NCBI GenBank assembly: GCA_902567095.1 | Contig: CACFLG010000005.1 | Span: 1,267-65,266 of the forward strand | DNA length: 64,000 bases | Direction of reading: 5' to 3' | DNA from: an uncultured OM182 clade bacterium | GTDB taxonomy: Bacteria > Pseudomonadota > Gammaproteobacteria > Pseudomonadales > Azotimanducaceae | In this document: positions 41,525 through 61,542 of the stretch, one piece after another | How positions within the stretch are numbered: position 1 is the stretch's first letter | Layout: every line of letters begins with the position of its first letter | Program-made: the position numbers and the translations under genes | Notes under the pieces: model-generated | Databases searched by the model: none | What the model saw: only the letters and a program-made list of their open reading frames with translations | What the model was told of the DNA's origin: nothing

Positions 41525-42438
41525 GAGCGTCCGCTCCGGGCAAGCTCTTTATTTTCGGGGAGTACACGGTACTGGAAGGCGGCACAGCTCTAATTTATCC
41601 TGCACCCTTAGAAGCAAAAACCGAATCAGTGGCCTCTGAAGAGTCGATAGTGGTAACCCATTCTGAGCAAAAGGTTACCTTAAATCTCTCGGAGGCTCTG
41701 AAGCAACTTCCATTGGTATCTGCTATTGCTGAATTGGTCGGAGTAAATTGCTTTAAAAACAAGATGACTATTTTAGACACGAGACCATTCTTTAGAGGTA
41801 AACAAAAGCTGGGTTTAGGGTCGTCATCTGCTCTGACCGTCTCTACAATTAAATGCCTCCGTCCAGAGCTTAGTATGAAAGATACGATAGAGCTTGGGAC
41901 CCGATGCCACAATCTCTTTCAGGGAAAAAAAGGCAGCGGTGGCGATGTTGCGCTGGCTGCGCATGGGCAGCCTATCTTGTTTAATCAAGATAGAGGCCCC
42001 AGACCGGTCGATCGGCTTCAAGGCTTGCACGTATTAGCTATATGGACAGGAAAGTCAGCTTCGACCTCGAACTTCCTGGTCAAGCTGGAACAATGGAAAA
42101 CCAAAAGTCGTGCAAGGTTTTATTCAAAAATGGAGGAGCTAGCTAAAATTTCACTGTCGTGCACGCATAATGTCGAAGAACAAAACATATCAAATCTTAT
42201 CGAAAATATTATAAAATTCGATGCGGCGTTGGAGATCTTTTCAAAGACTTCCCAGCTTAACTTCTATAGTGATAACCATTTAAGAATGAAAACCGAAAGC
42301 AAAAAAGCGGGCTTAGCTTACAAGCCCTCGGGCGCGGGCGGCGGTGACTTTGGAATCTCCTTTAGTGATGACGCCCAGCGGATAAAAGAATTTAGCGAGC
42401 GCTTAAGCTCCCTTAACATCGTCAACTTTATCCTTTAA
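41521..42438 (+). CDS. phosphomevalonate kinase (GHMP family)
   Basis: 305 aa with ASAPGKLFIFGEYTVLEGG, LGLGSSSALTV and KPSGAGGGDFG, located between the decarboxylase and the HMGR/MVK fusion. Confidence 0.75.
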   Translation: MRASAPGKLFIFGEYTVLEGGTALIYPAPLEAKTESVASEESIVVTHSEQKVTLNLSEALKQLPLVSAIAELVGVNCFKNKMTILDTRPFFRGKQKLGLGSSSALTVSTIKCLRPELSMKDTIELGTRCHNLFQGKKGSGGDVALAAHGQPILFNQDRGPRPVDRLQGLHVLAIWTGKSASTSNFLVKLEQWKTKSRARFYSKMEELAKISLSCTHNVEEQNISNLIENIIKFDAALEIFSKTSQLNFYSDNHLRMKTESKKAGLAYKPSGAGGGDFGISFSDDAQRIKEFSERLSSLNIVNFIL

Positions 42439-42450
42439 AAAAGAGAAAAT

Positions 42451-44694
42451 GTGCCGAGGAAGATAATGGGAAAAGGACAGATTCCGGGTTTTTATAAGCT
42501 ATCTATCCTCGAGAGGCTAAAGAAGCTTAAAGATTTCGGGAAAATTTCAGAGGACGATTTTAAGGCCCTTCTTGAAGACAGACACCTGCTGTCCACCCAG
42601 CGCGCAGACAAGATGATAGAGAATGTAATCGGTGTCATGGGCTTACCATTGGGTCTTGGACTGAATTTCCTAGTGAATGACAAGGACTACATGGTACCCC
42701 TAGTTGTAGAAGAGCCCTCCATTGTGGCGGGTTTGAGCTCTGCGGCGAAGGTTTTCAAAGGGTCCGGGGGTGCAGAATCTTTTCTTGAAGAGTCTTTGTT
42801 AATCGGCCAGGTGCAGATCGTGTCTCCAAAAAATAGCGAAGACGCAAAAACCGCAATTTTGTTTAATAAATCCTCCCTTTTAGAAAAGGCCAATGAAGCC
42901 CACCCGAGAATGGCAGAGCGGGGTGGAGGGGCGAAAGACATTGAAGTAAGAGTTTTTGAGCCAACGGAAGATCAGCCGGCCATGGTGATCCTGCATCTTC
43001 TAGTCGACACCTGCGACGCGATGGGAGCTAATGTTGTGAACACCATGTGTGAAAGCCTCGCGCATGATTTGGAAGCCTTGACCGAGGGAAGAGTTTTCCT
43101 GCGTATACTTAGCAACCTCGCAGATAGATCTATCGTCAAAACGAAAGTAGAGATAGATACGAACGAATTAAAAGGAAAAGGTTTTAGGGGTGACGAGGTA
43201 AGGGATGGAGTGATTCTTGCCTCTCAGCTCGCAGAGATAGATCCTTATCGCGCCGCAACCCACAACAAGGGAATCATGAATGGCATTGATCCGCTCGCCA
43301 TCGCTACCGGAAATGACTGGCGGGCGATTGAAGCCTCAGCTCACGCATTTGCAGCAAAAACAGGTCGCTACAAATCCCTTTCGAAGTGGCAAGCTACCAG
43401 CTCGGGAAAACTGCAGGGCACTTTAGAAATACCCTTAAAGGTGGGCACGAAAGGCGGCTCGTTAGGAGCAAATGAGACGATTCAAATTAGCCAAAAACTC
43501 TTAGGGATCACAAATGCAAAAGAGCTAGCTGAATTGATGGGCGCGGTGGGGCTCGCGCAAAACTTCGCTGCACTTAGAGCCCTAGCGACCGAAGGAATTC
43601 AGAAAGGGCACATGTCTCTCCACTCTCGTAGCGTGGCACTGACCGCGGGCACACCGCCGAAACACTTCGATGAAGTAGTGAGAAAACTCAAGGAATCGGA
43701 CGAGATTACCGTCACCAAAGCCAAAAAAATTCTTGAAGACCTCTCTTCAAAAACGAACAAGACCGTAGCGAAGAAAAATGAACACGCCACGATTGCAACT
43801 GCAAATGGAAAAGTGATTTTGCTTGGAGAACATGCCGTTGTATACGGTAAACCCGCCGTGGCGGTTCCAATCAAAGACGCTGTTATAACTGAGATAAGCG
43901 ACTCGGATGGCAGGAATGAGCTTGAGGTTCCTGCCTGGGATCTTGATGGACGGTTAAAACAATCTAACAATGAATGGTGGAAGTCCCTACAAGATGTTTT
44001 CGAGACACTCGGGGTATCCAACAAAAAATTTAATCTTCGGGTAAAGCCCAACATTCCGGCTGCAGTGGGTTTAGGGGGATCTGCTGCTATCGCGGTTTCG
44101 ATTATAAGGTGTGTCTCAAAACACTTTAAATTGGATCTTACGGATCCAGAGATCAACGATCTTGCTTTTGTGTGTGAGACCGCTGCGCACGGGACAGCCT
44201 CAGGCATCGACAATACTATTGCGACCTTTGGCGAGCCCCTGGTTTACCAGCGAGAGCCCTCTATGAAAATAGAAACTCTTAAGTTCGACAAACCCGTCAG
44301 CCTCGTCATAGGCATATCAAATACTCCTTCTTTAACAGCAGAGATGGTAGCGGGCGTAAGGGCTAGATGGAAAGAGAACACGGAATTATACGAAGCCCTT
44401 TTCGAAAACTTCGAAAAAGTTGCTAGGTCGGGAATCTCTGCTATCCGGAGCGGGGACTACCAAACATTGGGAGAGATGATGAACATCAATCAAGGTCTTT
44501 TGTCAGCTATTCAAGTGTCCTCTCCTGAGTTAGACCGAATGATAGAGATAGCAAGAAGCCAGGGCGCGATTGGCGCTAAAGTTACTGGCGCAGGGGGCGG
44601 CGGTTCAATGGTCGCCTTATGCGAAGAAAAAACTGAGCCCGTCGCGTCAGCACTTTCTAACAAAGGGTTCAAGGTCCTTCAGGTCAAACTGTGA
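42451..44694 (+). CDS. Fusion protein: class II HMG-CoA reductase (N-terminal ~430 aa) plus mevalonate kinase (C-terminal ~300 aa)
   Basis: HMGR part: EEPSIVAGLS, DAMGANVVNTMCE, ATHNKGIMNGIDPLAIATGNDWRA, GTKGG and ALATEGIQKGHMSLH. MVK part: GKVILLGEHAVVYGKPA, PAAVGLGGSAAIAVS (GHMP motif 2) and KVTGAGGGGSMVAL. It is a single 747-aa ORF; an alternative ATG lies at 42466. Confidence 0.9.
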   Translation: MPRKIMGKGQIPGFYKLSILERLKKLKDFGKISEDDFKALLEDRHLLSTQRADKMIENVIGVMGLPLGLGLNFLVNDKDYMVPLVVEEPSIVAGLSSAAKVFKGSGGAESFLEESLLIGQVQIVSPKNSEDAKTAILFNKSSLLEKANEAHPRMAERGGGAKDIEVRVFEPTEDQPAMVILHLLVDTCDAMGANVVNTMCESLAHDLEALTEGRVFLRILSNLADRSIVKTKVEIDTNELKGKGFRGDEVRDGVILASQLAEIDPYRAATHNKGIMNGIDPLAIATGNDWRAIEASAHAFAAKTGRYKSLSKWQATSSGKLQGTLEIPLKVGTKGGSLGANETIQISQKLLGITNAKELAELMGAVGLAQNFAALRALATEGIQKGHMSLHSRSVALTAGTPPKHFDEVVRKLKESDEITVTKAKKILEDLSSKTNKTVAKKNEHATIATANGKVILLGEHAVVYGKPAVAVPIKDAVITEISDSDGRNELEVPAWDLDGRLKQSNNEWWKSLQDVFETLGVSNKKFNLRVKPNIPAAVGLGGSAAIAVSIIRCVSKHFKLDLTDPEINDLAFVCETAAHGTASGIDNTIATFGEPLVYQREPSMKIETLKFDKPVSLVIGISNTPSLTAEMVAGVRARWKENTELYEALFENFEKVARSGISAIRSGDYQTLGEMMNINQGLLSAIQVSSPELDRMIEIARSQGAIGAKVTGAGGGGSMVALCEEKTEPVASALSNKGFKVLQVKL

Positions 44695-45260
44695 AAAACG
44701 ACCAAACCGTCTCATCGCCTACTGAGAAATTGATCCTTGTCGACAAAAGCGATAGAAAGATTGGGCAGATAACCAAGCAGGACGCCCACCAAGGGAAAGG
44801 CCGTTTGCACAGAGCATTCTCAATATTTCTGTTTAATGATCAAAAACAACTTTTATTACAAAAGAGAAGCTTAAAGAAACCGTTGTGGCCGGGATTCTGG
44901 GCTAATTCCTGCTGCAGCCATCCACGGGTGGGTGAGGAATTAGAGGAAGCCGTGCATCGCAGGCTGGAACAAGAACTCAATGTTTCCACGTTGGTTCATT
45001 ACTTGTATAAATTTGAGTACAAAGCTTCGTTCAAGGACGTTGGCACGGAGCACGAACTATGTTCAGTTTGGCTTGGCCACGTCCGAGAGGAAGACATAGA
45101 ATTTAACCGAGAAGAGATATCTGAAATCAAATATGTCCCGATTGAAAATATGGAAAAAGAACTTGCTCGTAATAGCGATATCTGCACGCCTTGGCTTAAG
45201 CTGGAATGGAAAACAATTCAATCTGAGCACCTGGAAAGAGTTCTAAGCATAATAGCTTAA
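44691..45260 (+). CDS. idi: isopentenyl-diphosphate delta-isomerase, type 1 (Nudix)
   Basis: 189 aa with HRAFSIFLFN, LLLQKRS..K..WPG.W.NSCCSHP and ELC motifs. Confidence 0.9.
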   Translation: MKNDQTVSSPTEKLILVDKSDRKIGQITKQDAHQGKGRLHRAFSIFLFNDQKQLLLQKRSLKKPLWPGFWANSCCSHPRVGEELEEAVHRRLEQELNVSTLVHYLYKFEYKASFKDVGTEHELCSVWLGHVREEDIEFNREEISEIKYVPIENMEKELARNSDICTPWLKLEWKTIQSEHLERVLSIIA

Positions 45261-49512: not shown

Positions 49513-50727
49513 GTGAATTTGAAATCATGTCTAACATCCATTGCTCTGTTGATCTGCCTGATTCTCTCTGTCGAGGGTCGCGGCGAGACTCAAATACCTT
49601 TCTCCGGTATTGCCTTCACTTCAGAGTTATCACTTGCGAGGGACTCAATGCCCTACACCTTTGGCATCATAGGCGACGAGGACTCTAACAAAAGCACCAA
49701 CTTCAGAAACAATCTACGGGAAAAAGCAGAGGGCAAACAATTAAAAAATGGGGCCTTCCTTTCTGCGAATGCTCAAAACCGCTTAAAGCGAGGGCAGGCA
49801 CTCGCTGTCGCTTTAGCGATCGAACGAGAGAGAATGCTTGAAACCAAACTCAGCGACGACGAGTACCAACTTAGCTTTGACATCGACGCCACCATTTTGG
49901 CCTTTAACTTTGACGAAAAGGCCATAGTCTCGTCACATCCTATTAGGCTGACATTGCTCACATCGTTACCAAGGAAACCCACCGAAAATGATAGGTCGAA
50001 GCTCGCAAATATTATGTTTTTTGGGGACACAGAAAAAGAGTGGTTCGAGAACCTCTCAGAATCTTATTTAATTACAGAATTCATGAAAGCTGTTCAGGAC
50101 ACAGAAATCCGTCAGGCCTGGCGCTCACATATTAGAGTTAAAAATATTGATCTGTCCCCTCAAGCGGCAAAGGTTTTGAAGGATCTTGATCAAGACCCCG
50201 ACTACATGCGACAACTGATCGCGTCCAGCGTCTCCTCATCCATGAGCACACGCCTTATGATTCCAGTGCTGCCATATGTTAAGAGCCAAGCAATCCAGAG
50301 CAGCATGACACTGAAGTTTTTTGAAACAGACCTCATGAATTTTAAAATTCCTGAGGCAAGCTTCCACATAGATCTTACACTTCGAGGATTTGGCTCGAAG
50401 ATTCTCGAAGAGACTAACCGCACTAAGGTTGTGTCTTATATCTCCGGTGTTCAAGTCCAGATAATAGATATAGACTTTGACGCGTCTCGAATGAAGCAGA
50501 AATTCCAAGCGGGAAACGTAAAACGACTGACTTCGGATATGACAGAGAACCTCTGGCATGAGTACGAACTAAGTCTGCTGTCACTGCTTGATCAAATAGT
50601 CATTCAAATCGACAAGCCAGACAAGAAATGGGTAGAAAAAAGAACAACCGGAAAATCAAAAACGAGAGACATTGTTAAATCTCTAAAAAATGTTAAAAAG
50701 CAGGTCATTGATCAGGTAAGGAGTTAA
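49513..50727 (+). CDS. Secreted protein of unknown function (envelope cluster gene A)
   Basis: 404 aa with a GTG start 27 nt after the SDR stop and a hydrophobic N-terminal signal-like segment LTSIALLICLILSVEG. I recognise no motif. Confidence 0.7.
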   Translation: MNLKSCLTSIALLICLILSVEGRGETQIPFSGIAFTSELSLARDSMPYTFGIIGDEDSNKSTNFRNNLREKAEGKQLKNGAFLSANAQNRLKRGQALAVALAIERERMLETKLSDDEYQLSFDIDATILAFNFDEKAIVSSHPIRLTLLTSLPRKPTENDRSKLANIMFFGDTEKEWFENLSESYLITEFMKAVQDTEIRQAWRSHIRVKNIDLSPQAAKVLKDLDQDPDYMRQLIASSVSSSMSTRLMIPVLPYVKSQAIQSSMTLKFFETDLMNFKIPEASFHIDLTLRGFGSKILEETNRTKVVSYISGVQVQIIDIDFDASRMKQKFQAGNVKRLTSDMTENLWHEYELSLLSLLDQIVIQIDKPDKKWVEKRTTGKSKTRDIVKSLKNVKKQVIDQVRS

Positions 50728-50731
50728 AGAA

Positions 50732-51865
50732 ATGAAAGAAAGGATCGCCCGGCCGTCATCAGCTTTTATCTTTCTTATGTTTTTAGTTGGAGTCTTTGCC
50801 TCATTGCTCTGGCAGAGCGCTCAAGCGCAGCAAGTGGAGATCAAGGGAACCTCATCCGCAATACTAAGCGGCAAATGTATCCGAGACAACAACGTTCGAG
50901 GTAAGCGTGACAAAGAGACCTTTGCCGAAACGCTTCAGAGAGCAAAGGTCAACTCAGTAAGAAGACACGTTGCAAACAGCGGAATCGCTGTCGCTAACGC
51001 TTACGACGCGAAACAAGCTGAAATAGCCAGAACTATTGATGACTTCATATTAAATCCAAATATTCGAGTGATTTGCGAGCGAGGCAAGAAGAATCTGCAA
51101 ATCGCCGTGACTGGAGAGCTCAATAAATCCGCGTTTGACAGAACCCTCGCCCTCAACCAAATGGCGGTCAAAGATCGATCAAGATTAACCTCCATCTTTG
51201 TCGCCCGAAGGCAGAGCGAGCTCAAAGCCTTTGACGCGCGAAGAACCGAGATCTCACGAACAACCGAGCTAAGCGAGGCCTCGCAGGCAGCGGAAGTGGG
51301 TGCGGATGGATCCATGAAAGCAGAGGGAATGTCGGTGTCGACTAAAAAGACTGAGTCTGGAGGGAATACAGCATACAAAGCCGACCAGATAAAGTACCAG
51401 ACCTTTCGTCCAGACGGGTTGGAAACCGCCACCAACGAAATTTTTGTCTCCCTCGGTTACCGGCCCATCAACAATTCACAAGTCGAAGCGATTAGCAAAG
51501 GAAAATTTAATGTCGCGCTTTTTGAGGAGGAGTTTGCCTCAAGCGAGAATATCAGCAACGCCACGCTAAGCAGCGCTTTTGAAGCTATCTCGGGCATCAT
51601 CCCTTTGCTAGTTATAGCCCGGCTTGATGTGGGCGCGCCAATAAGAGATCGTGGTAACGAGGAGCCAATCGTAGTGGTGGATGTAAAAGCTCAAGTTTAC
51701 AGATATGACGGGCTTTTCTACGAGACCGTGGGCTCCTACGGACCAGTCCAGATAAAAAGCGCAGGAATAACATCGACCGCGGCAGAAAACAATGCGATAT
51801 TAGAGGCATCTAGGGAGGCAGCCAGTCAACTCGGCGCCCAGCTGCTACAAAACAACATATTTTAG
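50732..51865 (+). CDS. Secreted protein of unknown function (envelope cluster gene B)
   Basis: 377 aa, starting 4 nt after gene A, with a signal peptide ending AQA|QQ. Ala-rich helices (AENNAILEASREAASQLGAQL) recall LPP20-type modules, tentatively. It ends ...LLQNNIF. Confidence 0.7.
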   Translation: MKERIARPSSAFIFLMFLVGVFASLLWQSAQAQQVEIKGTSSAILSGKCIRDNNVRGKRDKETFAETLQRAKVNSVRRHVANSGIAVANAYDAKQAEIARTIDDFILNPNIRVICERGKKNLQIAVTGELNKSAFDRTLALNQMAVKDRSRLTSIFVARRQSELKAFDARRTEISRTTELSEASQAAEVGADGSMKAEGMSVSTKKTESGGNTAYKADQIKYQTFRPDGLETATNEIFVSLGYRPINNSQVEAISKGKFNVALFEEEFASSENISNATLSSAFEAISGIIPLLVIARLDVGAPIRDRGNEEPIVVVDVKAQVYRYDGLFYETVGSYGPVQIKSAGITSTAAENNAILEASREAASQLGAQLLQNNIF

Positions 51866-51876
51866 GGAGGAAAAGC

Positions 51877-52554
51877 ATGAAGAAAATAATAATTATAGGC
51901 CTATCACTTATGTTTTTTGGGTCCATGACCGCCAACGCAATCAAATTGCCGGGCATGCCAGGAAAGTCAGACGACAAGGCAGCGTCTGCGGAAGCCAGTG
52001 AATCCGCTGCGGATTCCCAAGATGCTCTGGTCTCACAATTCAAGACCACACTCGGCTCGATACTTCTTGCTCAAAAGTACCTCTCCGTCGCCTTCGATCA
52101 AGCTGATCAGGCCGCGGCGTTGGATACTGAAATCGCCAGCCTAGAAGGAGACTGCGGAACTGATTGCCTTAAACGAGCGGTGAAGCTTTCAGGCAACGCC
52201 ACGGAATCAATCGGTGAGAAGCTAGACGCAAAGACAGAGATTGGCGCAACCGGCAAAACAAACTACGCACTAGCGCTGCCCCCTTACATAAGGGGAACTC
52301 TATCCGTCAAGGACCTAGCAAGCGCCGCTGGTTCCTGGGGCAAGCAGGCGACCGGAGAAATTAAGAATGCCGGCATGATGGGTGCGACAAAGCTCAAGAA
52401 GAAGCTGGGTACGGGCATGTACGTCGCGCAGCAAACCCCAAAACTCGCAAAGAATTGGGCAAAGGCCACAAAACAGATTTTCACCTACGCTAAATCTTCA
52501 AATATCGACCTAAGCAAGGTTGAAGGCGCAAGCGACTTCGATTTTGGTGACTAG
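51877..52554 (+). CDS. Secreted Ala/Lys-rich protein of unknown function (envelope cluster gene C)
   Basis: 225 aa with signal peptide MKKIIIIGLSLMFFGSMTANA. The C-terminus is ...EGASDFDFGD. Confidence 0.7.
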   Translation: MKKIIIIGLSLMFFGSMTANAIKLPGMPGKSDDKAASAEASESAADSQDALVSQFKTTLGSILLAQKYLSVAFDQADQAAALDTEIASLEGDCGTDCLKRAVKLSGNATESIGEKLDAKTEIGATGKTNYALALPPYIRGTLSVKDLASAAGSWGKQATGEIKNAGMMGATKLKKKLGTGMYVAQQTPKLAKNWAKATKQIFTYAKSSNIDLSKVEGASDFDFGD

Positions 52555-52565
52555 CGCGTAAGCAC

Positions 52566-53834
52566 GTGAAAAAATATCTGATTTTTATGCTCCTGATCTC
52601 TGGCGCTCTGTGCCAGGGAATCAGCGCGCTGGAAGTGACCTACAAAACCATCGAAGTTCTTGGGACCGGAAGCAGTCGTGACGAGGCGGTCACTTGGGCC
52701 CAAATCAACGCAATCCAAATGGTCACCGGAACTAAAATGTCTGCCTCAATCGAAGCAGAACGAGGTCTGTCCTCTGACGAGAAGGGCTCTAGGTTCTTTC
52801 AAAGCTCTTATGTAGATGTAAGCAAAGAGACTGCTGGCGTAATAAGATCCTCAGAGATCAGAAGCGTCCTGTATAACAAAGAATTGCAGGAGTGGAACGC
52901 CATTCTAATGGTCACGGTCCTTGATCTAGAGCGAGCGGGAGGGAGAAAAGCCATTGCCATCTCTGACCTGCGGGCAGAAAAAAGATCGTTAAGACCCTTT
53001 GCTCGTGATTTGACCGGTCTCCTCAAATCCAAACTGACGTCCTCGAGGAAATTCTCGGTGCTTGAGCAAAACCTTGGCACGAAATTTCGTCAGGAGCTGG
53101 ACGCCATAATTGAAAACCCCTTGCTCTCGCTGACAGAAAAGGTGATCGTCAAAAACGGTCTCCCACCCGATCTCGTTCTCGTTGGTAAGGTAGAGGCCGT
53201 TTCCTTGAAACTCACTGAGATTGCGCCCTCCTCCGACCTAATAAGGATAAAAATTCCTGACGTATCCGCAAGGGTTAACTATCAGATCATCGATATGTAT
53301 ACCTCGGAGACAAAGTTTCATGATGTTGCTCGAATCCGTCTGACCCAAGCAGATTTCGCTGCGTCTGGCCAAGCGGTGAATGAAGGAAACATTGGGTCAC
53401 TGTCCGCAGAAATCATTAGCACCAGGATAGTGGACAAGATCCTTGACGCCATATACCCGGTTATTCTTACCTCGATCTCTGAGGACAACCAGGTAAGCCT
53501 TAATTTTGGTTCAGAGTTCAACAAGCAAGGGGATGTCTTCAAAATATACCGGCGAGGGGACAGGATATATGACCCATACACGGAAGAAGTGATGACCTGG
53601 GAAGAGAGCTTTATGGGCGAAGTAAAAGTCACCCGGACACTGCCCAAAGTGAGCTTTGGAGAAATATCGGGAAACGAGCAAGATTTAAATCGAATCAGGG
53701 AAGAGCTAACAGAAAGATCAAGACAATTCGTGGCCTACAAAATAGCTAAAAGCTCAGCATCTAGTTCAAAAATGAAGAAAAAGGTACGTAAGGAAATCAG
53801 TGAAGAGAAGAAAGCTTTGGAGGAAGAATTCTAG
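52566..53834 (+). CDS. Secreted protein with an LPP20-like N-terminus and a CsgG/LpoB/FlgO-like middle domain (envelope cluster gene D)
   Basis: 422 aa, GTG start, signal peptide. The segment AIAISDLRAEK..FARDLTGLLKSKLTSSRKFSVLEQN...DLVLVGKVEAVS matches the CsgG-family pattern from memory (tentative). The C-terminus is KKVRKEISEEKKALEEEF. Confidence 0.7.
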   Translation: MKKYLIFMLLISGALCQGISALEVTYKTIEVLGTGSSRDEAVTWAQINAIQMVTGTKMSASIEAERGLSSDEKGSRFFQSSYVDVSKETAGVIRSSEIRSVLYNKELQEWNAILMVTVLDLERAGGRKAIAISDLRAEKRSLRPFARDLTGLLKSKLTSSRKFSVLEQNLGTKFRQELDAIIENPLLSLTEKVIVKNGLPPDLVLVGKVEAVSLKLTEIAPSSDLIRIKIPDVSARVNYQIIDMYTSETKFHDVARIRLTQADFAASGQAVNEGNIGSLSAEIISTRIVDKILDAIYPVILTSISEDNQVSLNFGSEFNKQGDVFKIYRRGDRIYDPYTEEVMTWEESFMGEVKVTRTLPKVSFGEISGNEQDLNRIREELTERSRQFVAYKIAKSSASSSKMKKKVRKEISEEKKALEEEF

Positions 53835-53878
53835 ATCGGATCTAAAAAAACAAACGAATATTTGAAAGAGGAAAACCT

Positions 53879-55672
53879 ATGCAAATTATTATCACGATAC
53901 TCATTATCGCAGGGCTCGTAATGTTTTTTGGGCCTGAGTCCTGTAGCGATTTAGGTGATACAACCTCAAAATCTGAAGCCGCGTCAGAAGAGACCGAGAC
54001 CTATAGTCGTTCCTCAGAAAGCGGTTCTGATGAAGAGGACCCCTTTTCAGAGGTCAGGCAACTTCTTTCCAACATCTCTGGGCCAACGTCTGAGAGCGAA
54101 ATAGTTAAACGAGCTCAAGCCTCTGCCTTCGTTGCGGAGGGGATATGTCCGAATCCCGTTGAAGACGTTAGAGAACGGGAGTTGGCGTGGTTAAAGCAGG
54201 AATCGCAAAAAGGGGCCAATTATTTAGGTCCAAGATTTACCGAAGACAACGATATCTACTTTGGGAGCGGAACTCCCTCTTTCCAAAAACTTGAAGTCAC
54301 CTCCACGCCCAGCAGAGATGCGGTCATCGCGCGGGATATGCTCTTTGCAATGGCTACTCTTCAGGCAAAAGCAGCGATTATTACTCAAATAAACAACAAC
54401 ATGACTGTTGAGCGTTACCTGAAGCAACCCAGGACCGGGATGACAAATGAGGAGGCGATATACAAAAAGGGAGAGGATTTACTTAACAACAGAAAAGAAA
54501 TTGCCGGAGAGATAGAGGCAGTCAACGAGGAACTAGGACGAGTAAATGAGGCATTACTAGACGCAGATGAAGACTACATGGAGGGAGTTACCTTTGGTGA
54601 TCGGATTGGGTCTTCAATTGACGGTATAAATAAACGACTTAACGAAGAATATAATCGTTCAGACATAACATCAGAAGAGAAAGAGCAGCTAGACATGCTT
54701 AGAGCTCGAGTCCAGACACTGAAAAACAAAAAAGAGACCTTGGAAATCGAACAAGAGAAATTAGCTGACGAAATATTGCCTTATGCTAAGGCTGTTTCTC
54801 AAGAAGAAGCGGTGAATAAGTTAGCCTGGCAAACTCTTTATGGTGTTCAAATTGTTAAACAATTCTTCTGTTTTAATCCCGAAAATCGATCCGCTGCCTT
54901 GCTTATAAGAGCGGTTTGGAGCACCAAGCTTCAGGAAGAAGCCGAAAAAACTCTAAGGAGAGAGCCAGTCACTCTTCAACCCACGGATCCCAACAAGCAG
55001 TTCTTTCAATACCTACTGTCAGACCTTGACGTGCAAAGGCCGACTTTTGGCAGATACGTGGAACCAAATGGCTCCGTGGTTTGGTACGCTGTTAGGCATG
55101 GAATTCCTATCCTAGGTAATAGCGTCGCTAGCACAGAAGCGGTTAAAGCATTTGCAGAGGCAATGCTCTTATCCTCGCTCTACTCGGAGGTCGGGACGCA
55201 GGTTCAAGCGAGCAGAGGCCTAGTCGGAGCAGCTGACGGCAGGGGTGCATTCACTACAGAAACACTAGCCGTAAACATGCGAGAAGAAGCTGAAAACGTT
55301 TTCTTTCCTGTTACTAGCCATCCCGGTATAACAGACAATCCCATGGGCGGTGAAAAATTGGAGTATGCGGTTGCATATGTTAGCGCAGACTCTTTGGCAC
55401 GATCACCCGAGATGGTCAAGCTCATTGAGGAGGCAAACTTTAGATTTCATAAAGATCAAGCTTACGTCAAGGGCCTTATCTCTGGCATGCAAGCGGCAGG
55501 CGCCTCGACAAAAAATGACCCCGAAGCAAGTCGAAGAGGCTTTAATGAGGGTGCCTCGGGGGTGATTTCTGGCGCTCAAGAGAACTCCTCAATCAGCAAT
55601 CAAAAAAGGACCGGACAACCAAAACCGGAAAAAGCGGATCGTTGGGAAAGTGACGTGAATGACGATTTCTAA
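53879..55672 (+). CDS. Membrane-anchored coiled-coil protein of unknown function (envelope cluster gene E)
   Basis: 597 aa with N-terminal TM segment MQIIITILIIAGLVMFFG, an acidic Ser/Glu linker and a heptad-like stretch EEKEQLDMLRARVQTLKNKKETLEIEQEKLADE. The C-terminus is KPEKADRWESDVNDDF. Confidence 0.7.
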   Translation: MQIIITILIIAGLVMFFGPESCSDLGDTTSKSEAASEETETYSRSSESGSDEEDPFSEVRQLLSNISGPTSESEIVKRAQASAFVAEGICPNPVEDVRERELAWLKQESQKGANYLGPRFTEDNDIYFGSGTPSFQKLEVTSTPSRDAVIARDMLFAMATLQAKAAIITQINNNMTVERYLKQPRTGMTNEEAIYKKGEDLLNNRKEIAGEIEAVNEELGRVNEALLDADEDYMEGVTFGDRIGSSIDGINKRLNEEYNRSDITSEEKEQLDMLRARVQTLKNKKETLEIEQEKLADEILPYAKAVSQEEAVNKLAWQTLYGVQIVKQFFCFNPENRSAALLIRAVWSTKLQEEAEKTLRREPVTLQPTDPNKQFFQYLLSDLDVQRPTFGRYVEPNGSVVWYAVRHGIPILGNSVASTEAVKAFAEAMLLSSLYSEVGTQVQASRGLVGAADGRGAFTTETLAVNMREEAENVFFPVTSHPGITDNPMGGEKLEYAVAYVSADSLARSPEMVKLIEEANFRFHKDQAYVKGLISGMQAAGASTKNDPEASRRGFNEGASGVISGAQENSSISNQKRTGQPKPEKADRWESDVNDDF

Positions 55673-56093
55673 GTCCTCAGCAATTCTTTTTACGCTCTGC
55701 TTAACAGCCTGCTCGGAGAATAGAAGCGATATATATCCGGGCGGGCACACCCTCCCTGCCATTGATTTTCTTGAATCCCTTATAGAGGATGAGAGTAGAT
55801 TTAGTGAGGGCTATTACCAAAAAGGTGACAAACTCTACTTTCTAGTTGAAGTAAAAGCTGATTCCTACGGTCCCATGATGTCTGTAAAAGCCGAAGCAGA
55901 AAGCACGCTTACGATAGGGCAAGGGCTTTTAGCTTACGCAGAAAAAAAATGCGAGGGAATTTCAAAAATTCAGACCAAGATGACGGAGACCATTAAACTC
56001 CTCTCGAAAAATTTTGAGGGTTTCTACCGCGAGTTGTGGAGCACTTCACTTTATCCGATAGATGAAAAAATCGAATCGATCTGTAAAAGCTAG
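55659..56093 (+). CDS. Small lipoprotein of unknown function (envelope cluster gene F)
   Basis: 144 aa with lipobox LTAC|S. Its ATG overlaps gene E by 14 nt. Confidence 0.65.
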   Translation: MTISKSSAILFTLCLTACSENRSDIYPGGHTLPAIDFLESLIEDESRFSEGYYQKGDKLYFLVEVKADSYGPMMSVKAEAESTLTIGQGLLAYAEKKCEGISKIQTKMTETIKLLSKNFEGFYRELWSTSLYPIDEKIESICKS

Positions 56094-56649
56094 GCTCTCT
56101 GCCTTGCTTGCTCTGTCGTTACTCTCTGTCAGTGCTTGGAGCCAACTAGCGTGGATAAAAAAAGAGACCAATCTACTATCGGAAGCCAAGACAAGCGCAA
56201 CGGTTCAGGCTCTCTTGTCGCCAAAAACCAAGGCCACGGTTCTCACACGAAAAGGCATCTGGGTACAGATTCAGGCAAACGGAGAAAACGGCTGGGTCAA
56301 GCTGTCGTCTCTTCGGTTTGGAGATAGCGGTAATTACAGAACCTCTTTAAGTGATCTCAAGACAGGACGGGAAGGCGCTGGCAATAACGTCGCAGCCACG
56401 GGCGCCAGAGGACTAGAGGCTGAAACCCTCGCTCTAGCCAAAGCAGACTACGAGGGCTTCTCTCAGTTCAAAGACATCTCACAAGACACCGCCTTATTGA
56501 TCGAACTCCGACAAATTAAAATGACGCGAGACATATCAGCGATATCTTTCAATCCGAGGGCAGTAAACGAAAGCACTGTCTTTGAAGCAGGCAACAAGCA
56601 AACGACTAAGAAACCAAAAAGAAGAACTGAGATCGACGATGAATTTTAA
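56062..56649 (+). CDS. Secreted SH3b-domain protein (envelope cluster gene G)
   Basis: 195 aa with signal peptide LLALSLLSVSAWS and an SH3_3-like segment ATVLTRKGIWVQIQANGENGWVKLSSLRF. The C-terminus is TTKKPKRRTEIDDEF. Confidence 0.7.
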   Translation: MKKSNRSVKARLSALLALSLLSVSAWSQLAWIKKETNLLSEAKTSATVQALLSPKTKATVLTRKGIWVQIQANGENGWVKLSSLRFGDSGNYRTSLSDLKTGREGAGNNVAATGARGLEAETLALAKADYEGFSQFKDISQDTALLIELRQIKMTRDISAISFNPRAVNESTVFEAGNKQTTKKPKRRTEIDDEF

Positions 56650-57424
56650 GTCTTTTAAAATCGCGATTTTGATTGGTCTCTGCTGGACGTTGTTTTCGGG
56701 AGGGATCACTGTTTATGGGGCAGCAGGAGATGAAGAATCGGAAATTGGGAGGGAGGTCGTGGCGCTTTACCTGGGCGCGGCGTCCCTCATCAATGACAAA
56801 AAAATCCTCGAATACGTGAACACCCTTGGTCAGCATATCGTGAGCTTTGTTCCTAAATCGGAGCAAACCAGAGACTGGAGGTTTGGTGTGATCGAATCGA
56901 GCGGTGTGAATGCTTTTGCAGCCCCTGGAGGCTACATCCTAATTACTAGAGGACTTCTGAACCTAACTGAAACCGAGGATCAGCTGGCCTTTATCTTAGC
57001 GCACGAGATTTCCCACGTCGTTAAGCGGCATCATCTCAAGGTAATACAAAAACAAAAGCAAATGTCACGCTTGCTCTCCAAGATGCAATCCAATATGAAA
57101 GAATCAAACGAGCTATTCCAAGATCTCAGCGGCGTTTATCGAGATTTTGCAACAAAAGGGTTGGATAAAAACGCAGAGCATGAGGCGGACCTTGACGGCT
57201 CCGTGTTAGCGGCGCGGGCAGGATTTAATTTGATGTCGGGACAGGAACTGCTCTTCATCCTCTCCGAGTTCTACCGAGACGGGAACGAAGCCCAGCTGTT
57301 TTTTAAAACGCATCCCCATCCTCTAAGCCGCGTTGATAAACTCTCAGAGTCGTTGCCCACCCAGATCGAAAAATTTGCCGTGGATTCTGACCCGAGCTCA
57401 GGGTACCGAGGCCTAAAGCGGTGA
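56639..57424 (+). CDS. Secreted M48-family zinc metalloprotease (envelope cluster gene H)
   Basis: NAFAAPGGYILITRGLL...QLAFILAHEISHVVKRHH (HExxH). I chose the ATG at 56639 (MNFKSFKIAILIGL... signal peptide) over the track start at 56582. It overlaps gene G by 11 nt. Confidence 0.8.
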   Translation: MNFKSFKIAILIGLCWTLFSGGITVYGAAGDEESEIGREVVALYLGAASLINDKKILEYVNTLGQHIVSFVPKSEQTRDWRFGVIESSGVNAFAAPGGYILITRGLLNLTETEDQLAFILAHEISHVVKRHHLKVIQKQKQMSRLLSKMQSNMKESNELFQDLSGVYRDFATKGLDKNAEHEADLDGSVLAARAGFNLMSGQELLFILSEFYRDGNEAQLFFKTHPHPLSRVDKLSESLPTQIEKFAVDSDPSSGYRGLKR

Positions 57425-58989
57425 AAGGTCTTCTCGCTCGGCTAGGGCTTTTATCCCGAAAAATGCGAACCGGTTTTTTTCTTGGTCTCTTCATTTTATT
57501 TTCGGTTTTCTCATCGATTTTGTTTCACTTCCAGTTCGATCTTCTTGATATCGAAAGCCTCCAATACGATGAGGGCGCTATCGATACCGCGTTTGATTGG
57601 AGATTTAAAATGCCGGACGCCAGCCCGAGCTTCCTCATCGTTGAAATTGACGAGGCCTCGCTCCACCACTTTTCTGAAGAGTACGGCAGGTGGCCTTGGC
57701 CAAGAGATATCTTTGGAGAGACGCTAGCAGGGATATCAGAGTATGACCCAAAGTCGGTTACCTTTAACATCATGTTCTCTGACCCTGATAGGCTAGACCC
57801 CGATTCTGATGCACTCTTTGATTTTATAATTGCGGAGACGGATAACGTCATCTTTCCTGCAACGCGTTTGTCAAAGCAAAACGATGAGCTTAGTGAGGTC
57901 AAAGCAAGCCAGCTTTCGTTTTCTCGAGACATAGAGGAAGACCGAACTGTTGCCATATTAGTGACTCAGTTCGGGGCTGCCACTACCAAAATGGCTATCA
58001 ATAACCTGTTGATTGATGATGACGGCATAGTTCGACGTTTTGCGGCGCTGCATTCTGAGCCTGGTTTCTCGCTACTAACGCTTCCTGGAAAGATTGCAGA
58101 GCTCGAATCACGATCATTAACAGACACTGAGTACCTCATAAACTGGCCAGAAGACATTAACAATTATGAATCTATATCGTTTAAGGTTTTATATGAAGCT
58201 CTGGAAAATGGTGATAAGTCCGTGCTCACAAGTTTATCAGACGAACACATACTGTTTGGGTTGACCGCACCTGGCTTGTCTTTCCAGCGACCCACTCCCG
58301 TGTCGGCCTTCACGGAGGACACGCGCATACTCACGGCCGTTGCCGACAATATAATTCAAGGGAATGGGCTCAGCACGATCCCACCCGCCCTGATTCTATT
58401 TCTTGCTATATTGATGTTCGGAGTGCTCTCGCTTTGCTTTATTTTGAAAGTTGATGATGGGTTAATTGACGTGATCTTCATTGGCCTTGAAACCAGCTCA
58501 ATCCTGATCACGATCGGTTCGATGAGTTTCACGTCCTATGCGATCGACTTAAGCTTTCTGATATTTTCTGGGCTCATCTACTTCGCAATATGTAAAACCT
58601 ACGACATACCCGTTAGATCATCTGAACGAGCCTACCGAAATTTCTTCGACGGAAAAACATCGGAGAAATACGCCTATTTTTCTGTTTTTATTTATCAGTC
58701 TGGGCAGCTAGACCAACTTCTGCAGTTCCTGAAAATAAAGTCTCCGGCGAGCGAGCGTATTTTCTTGGTAGACAATTTTATTTCGTCGCAGAGTTTGTTT
58801 CAGGAAGAGATTGTTGAGAGCGAAGTGTTGGTTTTCATGCATAGCGAGCCTCTTGCAGAATCTGAGGTGATAGATCAATTTTCTGCTACTCTTAATTTCT
58901 CTGTCGGCAAAAATTTTCAATCCGATGCGCTGCGGGCGATTGTCGGGTTATACAATGAAATGCTTGGACCTTCGTCGGTTGAGAACTAG
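57421..58989 (+). CDS. CHASE2-domain membrane protein without a recognisable output domain (envelope cluster gene I)
   Basis: 522 aa with a GTGA overlap with gene H. After the N-terminal TM segment comes FLIVEIDEASLHHFSEEYGRWPWPRDIFGETL...FNIMFSDPD, the CHASE2 signature. Then come ~3 TM helices and a ~130-aa tail with no kinase, cyclase or GGDEF motifs that I can see. Confidence 0.75.
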   Translation: MKGLLARLGLLSRKMRTGFFLGLFILFSVFSSILFHFQFDLLDIESLQYDEGAIDTAFDWRFKMPDASPSFLIVEIDEASLHHFSEEYGRWPWPRDIFGETLAGISEYDPKSVTFNIMFSDPDRLDPDSDALFDFIIAETDNVIFPATRLSKQNDELSEVKASQLSFSRDIEEDRTVAILVTQFGAATTKMAINNLLIDDDGIVRRFAALHSEPGFSLLTLPGKIAELESRSLTDTEYLINWPEDINNYESISFKVLYEALENGDKSVLTSLSDEHILFGLTAPGLSFQRPTPVSAFTEDTRILTAVADNIIQGNGLSTIPPALILFLAILMFGVLSLCFILKVDDGLIDVIFIGLETSSILITIGSMSFTSYAIDLSFLIFSGLIYFAICKTYDIPVRSSERAYRNFFDGKTSEKYAYFSVFIYQSGQLDQLLQFLKIKSPASERIFLVDNFISSQSLFQEEIVESEVLVFMHSEPLAESEVIDQFSATLNFSVGKNFQSDALRAIVGLYNEMLGPSSVEN

Positions 58990-58997
58990 GGCCACGC

Positions 58998-60851
58998 TTA
59001 CCTGCTTTTCCAGAAATCAGTGACCCTCTCGATCTCCTCAAGGCTTACCATCGGAGCCTGAAAACGGGTAAGACCCTTCGCCGCTGGATTAAGAAATAAT
59101 CCGTCTCCCTTCCCCTGCAATGCCTCTGCACCTTTCTGGTTCAGTATGACGCGTGAGTCAACATTTGAGCTCACGCGAAACGCCAGCCTCCCGGGCACAT
59201 TGGTCTTTATCAGGCCCGTGATAATGTCTGCCGTAGGTCGCTGTGTCGCCATGATAAGATGAATCCCCGCCGCCCTCGCCTTTTGGGCAAGGCGCACAAT
59301 CGGATCTTCGATAATACTTCCTTCCTGCATCAGCAGATCAGCGAGTTCGTCAATGACCACTACCATGTGAGAAAGTTTATTACGATTGTCTTCCAATTCA
59401 TTGAATTCTATTATATTTCTAGAATTGCTCTCATTTAAAAGGCGGTATCGCTCATCCATCATTTCGGTTAATTCGTTTAGCCGATCGATTGTCTGATCTG
59501 TCTCAGTAATGACCTCTCCGTCAAGGTGAGGCAGACCACGGAAATGAGAGAACTCCACCATTTTGGGATCGATCAAAACAAGCCTCAAGCCTTCGGGGGA
59601 TGCATGGTAAAGCAGCGAAACCAGCAGAGAGTTTAAAGCGATTGACTTACCCGACCCGGTAGACCCTGCAACTAAGAGGTGAGGCATTTGAGACAAATCA
59701 ACACAAACCGGAGAACCCAATGTGTCGATTCCTATTCTTAGAGGTAACTGCATCTCTGCACTTTCACGGGAGGTGTTAGTAATTAATTCGCGAAGCCCAA
59801 TGGTGCGCCTGTTTTTAACAGGGACCTCTACTCCTATCTTGCCTTCCCTGCCAACAATATCCGCGTTAAGTCGGACCGCGTCGTCCGGATGACCCAAGAA
59901 ACGGCTTATATCAGGCAGATGTCTCTCAACCTCTGAAATCTTTGTGCCCCGCTTTGGCGCCACAAAATGGGTCGCGACCATCGGCCCCACGACCGTCTCA
60001 TCTACGTCAGCCTTGACCCCGAACTGCTTCAACGCCGCCACTAGACGAGCGCTAGATTCTTTTAATTCTTCCTCGTCTCTATTCTCCTCATCAGAGGGTC
60101 TCAGAAAATCAATGTTCGGCCGCTCGTCTCCATATTCAGGGACGGGAGCGGGAACCGGCTGAGGCCTATCTTTTTGATCCGGCTCCTTCACAGGTTCAGG
60201 AGGTCGGGAGATATCTTCTGATCCCCTCTCACCCCCGGCAACCTTATCTCCGCCGGAGTGCTCAGAACCACCGACCGGTTTCTCGTCACTACCAAGGTCA
60301 TTGTTTTTATTCTCGTCTTTTTTAGATTCGTCTCTAGATGGCGGTGGTGGAGCTGAACTACCCGAGAAGGCTGAGCGCAGATAACCGATCGTCAAGGAGA
60401 CCCATTTTTTTACCTCTCTGGGAGAAAGACAAAACGCAAACACCAGGAGTAAAAGGAGCAGCGAGATAGGTCTTCCCAGAACCGATTCTAAAATTCCCCA
60501 GCCAGAATTTCCTATTGCTCCGCCCATGCCCGATGAACCAAAAATAGCTGAAGCGATAAAAATGAGCCCAGCGAGCCTGTACTGGTCTAGACTGCTCATC
60601 TTGCGACCTTTAATCTGGACGAAAGCGACGTAACCTGTAACTACAGGAAAAAACCAGGCGCCAGTCCCCAGCATACCCATCAAAGCGGAGCCGACTAGGC
60701 TGCCCATAGAGCCAAGAAATTCGGCTTGGCCTTGATGCACCTGCAGAAGACAAAGCCCAAAGTAACCTGACAACGCAAGCAGCGTGTACGGGCTAACGAG
60801 AATCTGTCTTAATAGATTTTCTTTTTTTTTCCTAGCCAATGGTTCCCTCAC
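58998..60851 (-). CDS. ftsK: FtsK/SpoIIIE-family DNA translocase lacking the C-terminal gamma (KOPS/XerD) domain
   Basis: 617 aa with a 4-TM N-terminal domain, a Pro/Glu-rich linker, and a motor with Walker A AGSTGSGKS and Walker B VVVIDELADL. The ORF stops at ...EEIERVTDFWKSR, right after the beta domain. Confidence 0.8.
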   Translation of the reverse strand: MREPLARKKKENLLRQILVSPYTLLALSGYFGLCLLQVHQGQAEFLGSMGSLVGSALMGMLGTGAWFFPVVTGYVAFVQIKGRKMSSLDQYRLAGLIFIASAIFGSSGMGGAIGNSGWGILESVLGRPISLLLLLLVFAFCLSPREVKKWVSLTIGYLRSAFSGSSAPPPPSRDESKKDENKNNDLGSDEKPVGGSEHSGGDKVAGGERGSEDISRPPEPVKEPDQKDRPQPVPAPVPEYGDERPNIDFLRPSDEENRDEEELKESSARLVAALKQFGVKADVDETVVGPMVATHFVAPKRGTKISEVERHLPDISRFLGHPDDAVRLNADIVGREGKIGVEVPVKNRRTIGLRELITNTSRESAEMQLPLRIGIDTLGSPVCVDLSQMPHLLVAGSTGSGKSIALNSLLVSLLYHASPEGLRLVLIDPKMVEFSHFRGLPHLDGEVITETDQTIDRLNELTEMMDERYRLLNESNSRNIIEFNELEDNRNKLSHMVVVIDELADLLMQEGSIIEDPIVRLAQKARAAGIHLIMATQRPTADIITGLIKTNVPGRLAFRVSSNVDSRVILNQKGAEALQGKGDGLFLNPAAKGLTRFQAPMVSLEEIERVTDFWKSR

Positions 60852-60867
60852 TTTTATATTTTTTCAT

Positions 60868-61542
60868 CTAAAAAAAACCCACCAGCCAATCCCAGGCTGT
60901 AGACCAGCAGCTAAACACGTAGGCTATGGCCTCATCAGGGCCATCAAGGAAATAAATAAGCGCCCAGCCGTAGATCATGACATTAGCGGTAGGCAAAAAC
61001 AAAGCCGCAAACAGAAAGCCTGTCTCCTGCAGGTCAGTCTGACCACTGTGGGTCTCAACATAGGTAGACGTTATGTGGTAGGCCATAACCGCTCCCAGCA
61101 TGACCTCGATAGAGTCGTAGTACTGGCGATCAACAACAACCGACAGAATCATCGGAATCAGCATCAGCGTAGGAAAAAAATACGGAGCGATATAGATCAG
61201 CCAGTTTTCGCCTCCCTCGATATAGCAGACACCACCAGAATTCCAAGTAGCCTGGAGACCTGTGACTCTTTTGAAGGTGATCCAAGCGAACAAAGCGTGA
61301 GTTAATTCATGCTCGAAGGTTGAAAAAAAAGATCCTGCAGAGCGTTTGCTAAAGATAAATACCCAGAGCAAAAAGTATCCGACAAAGCCAATCAGGATAG
61401 TAACCTTACTTGAAAATAGTTCGCCTACGACTCCCGAATCCCTGAGCTCGATCAGAGAGAAGGGTAGAATTAAGATCGACGCCGCAGCCAGTGGCCACTT
61501 GATGATCTCTAATCCTTTGTCAATAAAACCTGAAATTGACAC
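60868..61542 (-). CDS. Polytopic membrane protein with an HExxH motif (putative zincin/M50-like)
   Basis: 224 aa, about 6 TM helices, with FEHELTHALFAW. It lies 16 nt upstream of ftsK on the same strand. Confidence 0.55.
   Translation of the reverse strand: MSISGFIDKGLEIIKWPLAAASILILPFSLIELRDSGVVGELFSSKVTILIGFVGYFLLWVFIFSKRSAGSFFSTFEHELTHALFAWITFKRVTGLQATWNSGGVCYIEGGENWLIYIAPYFFPTLMLIPMILSVVVDRQYYDSIEVMLGAVMAYHITSTYVETHSGQTDLQETGFLFAALFLPTANVMIYGWALIYFLDGPDEAIAYVFSCWSTAWDWLVGFF

Follow-up and report, generated by a model that had tools for sequence, protein, structure and literature searches.

Acidic-aromatic C-terminal tails on non-homologous exported proteins of a widespread envelope operon, possibly serving as docking peptides

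INTRODUCTION

Three exported proteins encoded in one operon of an uncultured OM182 clade bacterium (Gammaproteobacteria) end in a short acidic peptide closed by phenylalanine. The operon comprises nine tightly packed genes, here termed A to I, and lies in a stretch of 64,000 nucleotides (GenBank assembly GCA_902567095.1, contig CACFLG010000005.1, positions 1,267 to 65,266 of the forward strand), the whole of which was analysed and is called the window. The C-termini in question are ...KKALEEEF (gene D), ...WESDVNDDF (gene E) and ...RRTEIDDEF (gene G). D and E make up the core of an uncharacterised envelope cluster of wide distribution, and comparison of the sequences supports a genuine, selected terminal peptide common to non-homologous exported proteins. 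We tentatively read it as a docking peptide of a periplasmic assembly.

Among the 59 gene-like open reading frames (ORFs) of the window, an ending in [DE][DE]F is found in D, E and G alone. From the amino-acid composition of the window the chance of such an end is ∼7e-4 per protein, giving a probability of ∼3e-8 for at least three of nine proteins and ∼1e-5 for at least three of 59. When 157 non-operon ORFs from the window and from related loci were inspected, an acidic-aromatic end was seen in four, two of which adjoin an operon; the last residue is W in one of the 157, F in seven and Y in four. The motif is specific to the system and strongly non-random.

The tails had been remarked upon in an earlier note made from the letters of the window. 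The four C-termini quoted there (of C, D, E and G) and the 44-nt spacer given for D are exact on re-reading the sequence. Its description of the proteins as otherwise unrelated also stands, for D, E and G compared mutually have no other sequence similarity. It overstated the motif in one point: an exact [DE]3F end is found in two of the four, D (EEEF) and G (DDEF), and not in three, E having N-D-D-F. The end of gene C, ...EGASDFDFGD, bears a loose likeness only, with Phe at −3 and −5 (SDFDFGD, 52531-52551).

CONSERVATION OF THE TERMINAL MOTIF

With a profile of D, 44 related loci (numbered with the prefix L below) were drawn from collections of genomes and metagenomes. Closer D homologs, down to 30% identity, all end in [IL]-E-x-x-[FY]; in their alignment E419 is invariant and F422 nearly invariant. 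Distant orthologs, from Porticoccaceae, Desulfobacteraceae, Sutterella/Duodenibacillus and metagenome contigs, end in DDDW, DEDW, DDEW, EDAW, DDAW, KDEW, SKEW, DSNW or KNDW. An exhaustive search of 1.84 billion cluster representatives with the D profile (E ≤1e-3) gave at least 1373 D-family clusters at 50% identity clustering. Tails were counted in the 143 full-length proteins out of the best 150 representatives, which share ≤50% mutual identity. The last residue is aromatic in 90 of the 143 (63%; W 74, F 11, Y 5), mostly after D or E, and 29 (20%) have a second ending, GGVxLPFD.

In the 90 aromatic-ended representatives, D or E makes up 48-58% at positions 1-3 from the C-terminus, and hydrophobic residues peak at positions 0, 4, 8, 11, 15, 19 and 22, a period of ∼3.6. 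By this pattern the D tail is predicted to be an amphipathic helix, its hydrophobic stripe ending at the terminal aromatic residue. AlphaFold2 (AF2), run with a deep alignment, models a helix at 399-421 with a pLDDT (predicted local distance difference test) score of 85-95, and this score together with the stripe points to a packed element rather than a free one. K and R account for 25% of the residues between −25 and −6 and for 12% of the remainder of D. Mutual information between tail class and columns of the D body picked out positions 219 and 226, basic in the acidic-aromatic class and E or Q in the LPFD class, a signal that is confounded by phylogeny and exploratory only; window D has Ile at both.

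Searches for E homologs, with E alone and with a 17-sequence profile, returned only relatives at least 89% identical and one 40%-identical fragment, and E orthologs were therefore drawn from the loci fetched via D. In orthologs at 17-44% identity the terminal F597 is invariant and D596 nearly so, within a longer end motif [WFY]-x-[SG]-[DE]-x-x-V-x-D-D-F. A shorter E-like family of other operons likewise has an invariant terminal F, and the merged alignment of 17 E sequences has only three invariant columns, the terminal Phe among them. Counting all distinct E-family sequences, with identity down to 10-15%, the last residue is F in 20 of 20. The E motif follows a low-complexity linker of variable length, and E tails lack a consistent basic stretch. 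In G the motif is preceded by a basic stretch; G orthologs, found in close relatives only, end in EIDDEF (L009) and DIEDEF (L014, 42% identical), so that the tail is kept in three of three.

Other genes of the operon follow this pattern loosely or not at all. Some C orthologs have F near the end (DFDFGD, LNFGD, DIFSD, DDDEFES, ISFDA, ANFDF, GFKF, GFQF) and others have no such motif (GDEMEG, VGDEI, ALGDL, SAVPM). Gene B ends in NNIF in the window, an ending not kept in distant orthologs. Gene A is without an acidic-aromatic tail and has a conserved basic end (e.g. ...KKQVIDQVRS, ...KKVFSKLR, ...NKIIERCK), which might be the counterpart of the acidic tails; in Sutterella and Duodenibacillus gene A starts with a lipobox.

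The likeness of the tails could in principle be chance, or a by-product of overlapping starts and ribosome-binding sites of downstream genes. Genes E and F indeed overlap by 14 nt (F ATG at 55659) and genes G and H by 11 nt (H ATG at 56639), and the sequences ..AATGACGATTTCTAA and ..GATGAATTTTAA at these two places contain the ATG of the next gene. Gene D, however, has no overlap, being followed by its 44-nt spacer (53835-53878), and the composition probability of ∼3e-8 argues against chance. The tails are moreover kept at 10-45% identity, while their codons change synonymously (GAA/GAG, GAT/GAC, TTT/TTC) and the 3′ context of the tail genes varies from overlaps through spacers of 15-500 nt to no gene at all. 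Since the residues are kept under synonymous change and in varied contexts, selection acts on the protein end and not on overlapping starts or ribosome-binding sites. Chance and overlap, to which we assign next to no probability, are refuted as an explanation; the argument already made from the D spacer holds, and conservation in orthologous operons, which had been named beforehand as the test of the motif, was borne out for D and E, and for G in close relatives.

PROTEIN FAMILIES CARRYING THE TAILS

D is modelled as a protein with a FlgT/CsgG/TsaP-like fold. The monomer AF2 model, made from a 146-sequence alignment, has a mean pLDDT of 86.7 and a predicted template modelling (TM) score, pTM, of 0.77. 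In a Foldseek search against PDB, FlgT comes out on top (3w1e, E 7.5e-18; Vibrio LPHT ring 8z5n, 8e-17), and the alignment spans ∼410-415 columns, the full length of D, and takes in the three-domain N/M/C architecture; E values for FlgT reach 1.9e-18. The next matches are to the middle domain of D: CsgG, CT253, HpaA, GNA1162 and PelC. At the level of profiles, D resembles TsaP in its C domain (5.4e-12) and CsgG chains in its middle domain (5e-5). Relatives of D match Pfam CsgG (PF03783), LpoB, FlgT_M, FlgT_C and TolB_N, and their names at IMG are 'TolB-like' or 'CsgG'. The FlgT_M and FlgT_C matches of these relatives are sub-threshold, except that one fusion protein (L029) passes the FlgT_C cut-off with 28.9 against 27 bits. 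The D signal peptide has no conserved Cys, and the combination of Pfam domain and lipobox that would assign D to CsgG was not found. Some D-family members depart from the three-domain plan: two (P0065, P0108) are fused to a caspase (Peptidase_C14) domain, and duplicated CsgG/LpoB-like modules occur in others (P0071, P0074, P0104, P0156, and L029 9725-11785).

E is a divergent DUF6844 (PF20891) protein, and the profile comparisons reach the level of homology. The E profile aligns with that of the short E-like family at 99.7% probability (hhalign, E 2.8e-27), and with PDB entry 4QVR, Francisella FTT_1539c, at 1.7e-9; the short E-like profile matches 4QVR at 7.9e-64. PF20891 is matched by eight of the 17 E-family members (best 5.9e-25). 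Window E itself has no direct match, its score lying under the Pfam threshold, and some 100-150 of its residues are a coiled-coil insertion. In the literature searched on FTT_1539c, on DUF6844 and on C-terminal tryptophan no functional study turned up, and the papers found that name the family or FTT_1539c do not mention the terminal Phe.

PDB, Pfam and NCBIfam, searched by sequence, gave nothing usable for A, B or C. One ortholog of gene B has a weak FlgT_N match. A relation of A or B to D was tried with hhalign and rejected as not significant, and for this reason no FlgP-like or FlgT_N-like nature is claimed for B.

OPERON TYPES AND DISTRIBUTION

Two layouts of the cluster were distinguished. 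Type I, A-B-C-D-E, occurs in the window and in many Gamma-, Beta- and Deltaproteobacteria, with A orthologs directly upstream of B-C-D-E in 20 loci. Type II runs from a tetratricopeptide repeat (TPR) lipoprotein through YcfL, an LpoB-like protein and DUF6844 to D, sometimes with an MltC-like lytic transglycosylase, and is found in Campylobacterota and on an Azospirillum plasmid annotated at RefSeq (L004-L006, L029 and L045, the last being NZ_CP039640.1 253686-258689). In type II operons D ends in GGVxLPFD, E keeps ...DDF, and a terminal W appears on the LpoB-like lipoprotein (...SVAW, ...TVSW). Escherichia coli LpoB, which is without D and E partners, ends in ...AVSQQ; the aromatic end thus belongs to the system and not to the fold.

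The genes downstream of E have a much narrower range. F orthologs were found only in L009, L012 and L014, and those of H and I only in L009 and L014, all close relatives. The D and E tails persist without F, G, H and I in operons of Porticoccaceae, Desulfobacteraceae, Sutterella/Duodenibacillus, Campylobacterota and Azospirillum, and beyond D and E no family is shared by all tail-keeping operons.

Apparently three kinds of tail occur per operon (L002, L003, L005, L007, L026, L033, L045): [DE]x-W/F on D or on the LpoB-like protein; ...DDF on E; and a looser kind with F beside D or G, on C (...FDFGD, ISFDA, NFDF) or on type II D (...LPFD). They may represent three distinct docking sites. Two small proteins that adjoin related operons also have acidic-aromatic ends, ...KTDNDF (L031 7045-7950, minus strand) and ...GKCEDF (L002 130-531, plus strand), and may be additional lineage-specific tail bearers.

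PROPOSED ROLE OF THE TAILS

We hold it plausible, if tentative, that by these C-terminal peptides several subunits dock to one another in a periplasmic assembly, probably ring-shaped. Each tail would present its final aromatic side chain and free carboxylate, with the acidic flank, and would fit into a groove of hydrophobic and basic character on an adjacent subunit, the likeliest site being on D or between copies of D. One scaffold could in this way receive E, the SH3b protein G and, elsewhere, the LpoB-like outer-membrane lipoprotein; G would link the assembly to peptidoglycan through its SH3b domain, the LpoB-like lipoproteins to the outer membrane. Docking function, ring formation and the receptor subunit are what we infer. 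The motif is fixed to the free C-terminus, which implies recognition of that very end. Only the D and E families are present in all tail-keeping operons, so the receptor is probably one of them. D is FlgT-like by its model, and the tails stand at free C-termini, on linkers or on a packed helix, which makes docking the best reading. The structural neighbours of D include oligomeric or ring-forming envelope proteins (CsgG, PelC, TsaP).

The nearest parallel is the Vibrio H-ring. There, according to two cryo-EM preprints on Vibrio motors, the C-terminal tail of FlgP (Q133-F143 in V. alginolyticus, residues 132-145 in V. cholerae) lies in an open groove or in inter-subunit clefts of the FlgT ring, and FlgO's C-terminal loop binds FlgP (bioRxiv 10.64898/2025.12.04.692373, 10.64898/2025.12.02.691832). 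The likeness consists in the FlgT three-domain architecture of D and in the attachment of H-ring partners by flexible C-terminal tails. The differences are several. No flagellar genes were recognised among the ORFs of the window or among the scanned operon-flanking ORFs of related loci, and Sutterella, a host of related operons, is not known to be motile. In the present system the FlgT-like D itself bears a tail. The partners here (DUF6844, A, B, C and the SH3b protein) are unrelated to FlgP and FlgO in all searches made, and the acidic-aromatic consensus is undescribed in the H-ring. Of the three roles offered in the earlier note, a docking, sorting or processing tag, docking is by this analogy the best supported, because D is FlgT-like and FlgT rings bind partner tails; sorting and processing are less so.

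Several points weigh against this interpretation. The structure of D is a monomer AF2 model only, and ring formation by D is assumed from its structural neighbours. The global TM score of D against FlgT is low (0.26-0.30); because domain orientations differ, the likeness is one of domain architecture and not of rigid-body arrangement. Window D has no match to Pfam FlgT_N, FlgT_M, FlgT_C or CsgG. The high pLDDT of the D helix could merely mean that it packs against its own chain and plays no part in assembly. C tails, finally, are poorly conserved, although many have F in the last five residues beside D or G.

Were the tail instead a signal for quality control or processing, a PDZ protease (DegS, DegP, Prc or CtpA type) or the M48 protein would degrade, trim or report unassembled subunits. 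This would suit a motif at the free C-terminus and an operon which, in the window, has genes for an M48 protease and for a sensor-like CHASE2 protein, and there is a precedent in the outer-membrane protein (OMP) C-termini that end in Y-x-F and activate DegS via its PDZ domain. DegS, however, prefers an aromatic residue at −3, where most of the sequences here have D, E or N; the operon proteins scanned yielded no PDZ protein; M48 and CHASE2 are missing from most tail-keeping operons; and in the model the D tail forms a helix that is well packed, unlike a degron. We regard such a signal as quite unlikely. The suggestion that the M48 protease, the SH3b protein or the CHASE2 domain reads the tail fails on similar grounds: F to I are restricted to close relatives while the D and E tails persist elsewhere, so none of the three is a general reader, and the SH3b protein G itself bears a tail. 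A terminal F or W is also the hallmark of the OMP β-signal, and the aromatic final residue of these exported envelope proteins, together with the FtsK/SpoIIIE-family gene that adjoins the operon in the window, L014 and L002, could speak for export or sorting into or beyond the outer membrane by the β-barrel assembly machinery (BAM) or by a dedicated translocon including that neighbouring FtsK-like ATPase. Yet the β-signal is an amphipathic β-strand of a barrel with alternating hydrophobic residues (−3, −5, −7, −9), whereas here acidic residues occupy −2 to −4 and an acidic or K/E-rich stretch precedes the end, in a segment that is helical or disordered, and D and E have folds of soluble periplasmic proteins, not barrels. 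Known CTERM sorting models are unmatched, and the FtsK-like gene was not seen beside the operon in other lineages with listed flanks. Export or sorting seems to us highly improbable.

An envelope anchor, in which the K/R-rich segment and the acidic-aromatic end bind lipopolysaccharide, phospholipid head groups, divalent cations or peptidoglycan, is another option. Trp and Phe favour membrane interfaces and would suit such ends; K and R are enriched at −25 to −6 of D; and the clusters hold the peptidoglycan-related LpoB-like, SH3b and MltC-like genes. But the terminal F of E is invariant though its basic stretch is inconsistent, anionic lipids would repel an acidic end if no cations came between them as a bridge, and the heptad-like hydrophobic stripe suggests protein-protein packing. 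We think anchoring very unlikely.

Beyond these, some known systems share single features with the operon. D resembles CsgG, TsaP and PelC, its middle domain matching CsgG and its C domain TsaP in both profile and fold, but it has no lipobox, has no curli, pilus or Pel genes nearby, and has an extra N domain and the tail helix. E is likened to FTT_1539c (4QVR) as a divergent member of DUF6844, and is set apart by its coiled-coil insertion. In the single-stranded DNA-binding protein SSB (...DDDIPF) and in T7 gp2.5 and gp4, an acidic tail with terminal Phe docks its free C-terminus into a basic, hydrophobic pocket of several partners. The chemical logic is the same, by analogy only, for these are cytoplasmic DNA-replication proteins of unrelated fold. 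LPXTG, PEP-CTERM and GlyGly-CTERM tags are likewise short C-terminal motifs shared by unrelated exported proteins; unlike the present tails, which stand at the extreme end and have no transmembrane (TM helix) segment, these sortase, exosortase and rhombosortase tags combine a motif with a TM helix and a basic cluster and are cleaved. No NCBIfam match to such a tag was found, and no sortase, exosortase or rhombosortase among the scanned operon genes and neighbours. No Pfam or NCBIfam model covers the motif, and a limited literature search did not find it described; it appears to be undescribed so far, which agrees with the earlier statement that no sorting signal of this form is known.

A bolder form of the docking proposal is that one receptor pocket reads the free carboxylate and the Phe or Trp beside Asp or Glu on at least three non-homologous families (FlgT-like; DUF6844; SH3b or LpoB-like). 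Such a code would underlie a widespread periplasmic ring machine, non-flagellar and so far unrecognised, which may work with the neighbouring gamma-less FtsK-like ATPase. We consider this extension doubtful; if true, the tails would be a new envelope targeting or assembly code and not an ordinary subunit contact. If docking as such is true, C-terminal tail attachment to FlgT-type rings would extend to a widespread non-flagellar system with a clear sequence code, which suggests tail docking as a general way to build rings on FlgT/CsgG-like scaffolds, beyond flagella. The motif also opens a first route to the function of this large group of envelope operons, so far without annotation, which takes in the at least 1373 D-family clusters, DUF6844 and Francisella FTT_1539c, of solved structure. 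A short terminal motif is easily mutated, predicts co-assembling subunits, and could be used for receptor pull-down and for finding components genome-wide.

GENE CONTENT OF THE OPERON AND ITS NEIGHBOURHOOD

The genes and tails of the operon are listed in Table 1. By inspection, A to H have a signal-peptide-like start and I does not. In the Pfam scan only G, H and I were recognised, A to F being without match, and the NCBIfam scan of operon proteins added nothing useful. H is BepA/LoiP-like without the TPR domain, and matches the NCBIfam BepA model in part only.

Table 1. Genes and C-terminal tails of the envelope operon (window coordinates)
Feature	Position	Strand	Length (amino acids)	Description
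Operon A-I	49513-58989	+		Nine tightly packed genes, from the ORF list
Gene A	49513-50727	+	404	Exported; fold unassigned; type I core member
Gene B	50732-51865	+	377	Exported; fold unassigned; core member
Gene C	51877-52554	+	225	Exported; helical; conserved KLKKKL segment
Gene D	52566-53834	+	422	Exported; three-domain FlgT/CsgG/TsaP-like
D tail	53760-53831	+		Residues 399-422; predicted K/E-rich amphipathic helix; final L-E-E-E-F-COOH at 53817-53831
Gene E	53879-55672	+	597	Divergent DUF6844; N-terminal hydrophobic segment, coiled-coil insertion, low-complexity C-terminal linker
E tail	55643-55669	+		W-E-S-D-V-N-D-D-F-COOH, ending a linker of variable length
Gene F	55659-56093	+	144	Predicted lipoprotein (LTAC/S); no tail; accessory
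Gene G	56062-56649	+	195	Exported SH3b-domain protein; Pfam SH3_3 5.8e-7
G tail	56629-56646	+		E-I-D-D-E-F-COOH
Gene H	56639-57424	+	261	Exported short M48 metalloprotease; Pfam Peptidase_M48 3e-25; accessory
Gene I	57421-58989	+	522	CHASE2-domain membrane protein; Pfam CHASE2 2.9e-33; accessory

The FtsK/SpoIIIE-family ATPase that adjoins the operon has 589-617 amino acids and lies at 58998-60851 on the minus strand of the window, at 9548-11317 in L002 and at 7463-8527 in L014, where it was judged only by the similar C-terminal sequence of an adjacent minus-strand ORF. Its N-terminal part has TM segments, and the alpha and motor domains are present, but no FtsK gamma domain was detected; it could be a linked translocase and not the housekeeping FtsK. 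Just past this gene in the window follows a Peptidase_M50B-like membrane protein ending in ...WLVGFF (60868-61542, minus strand).

Two further groups of genes were observed in the window. SelA and SelB, for synthesis and decoding of selenocysteine, are adjacent (35740-39014), and with both present, tRNA-Sec and selenoprotein genes may occur in the genome. A mevalonate cluster (40559-45260) encodes diphosphomevalonate decarboxylase, a GHMP kinase, a NUDIX-type (IDI-like) protein and a 747-amino-acid fusion of hydroxymethylglutaryl-coenzyme A (HMG-CoA) reductase with a GHMP kinase, and is unusual for a proteobacterial-type marine metagenome-assembled genome.

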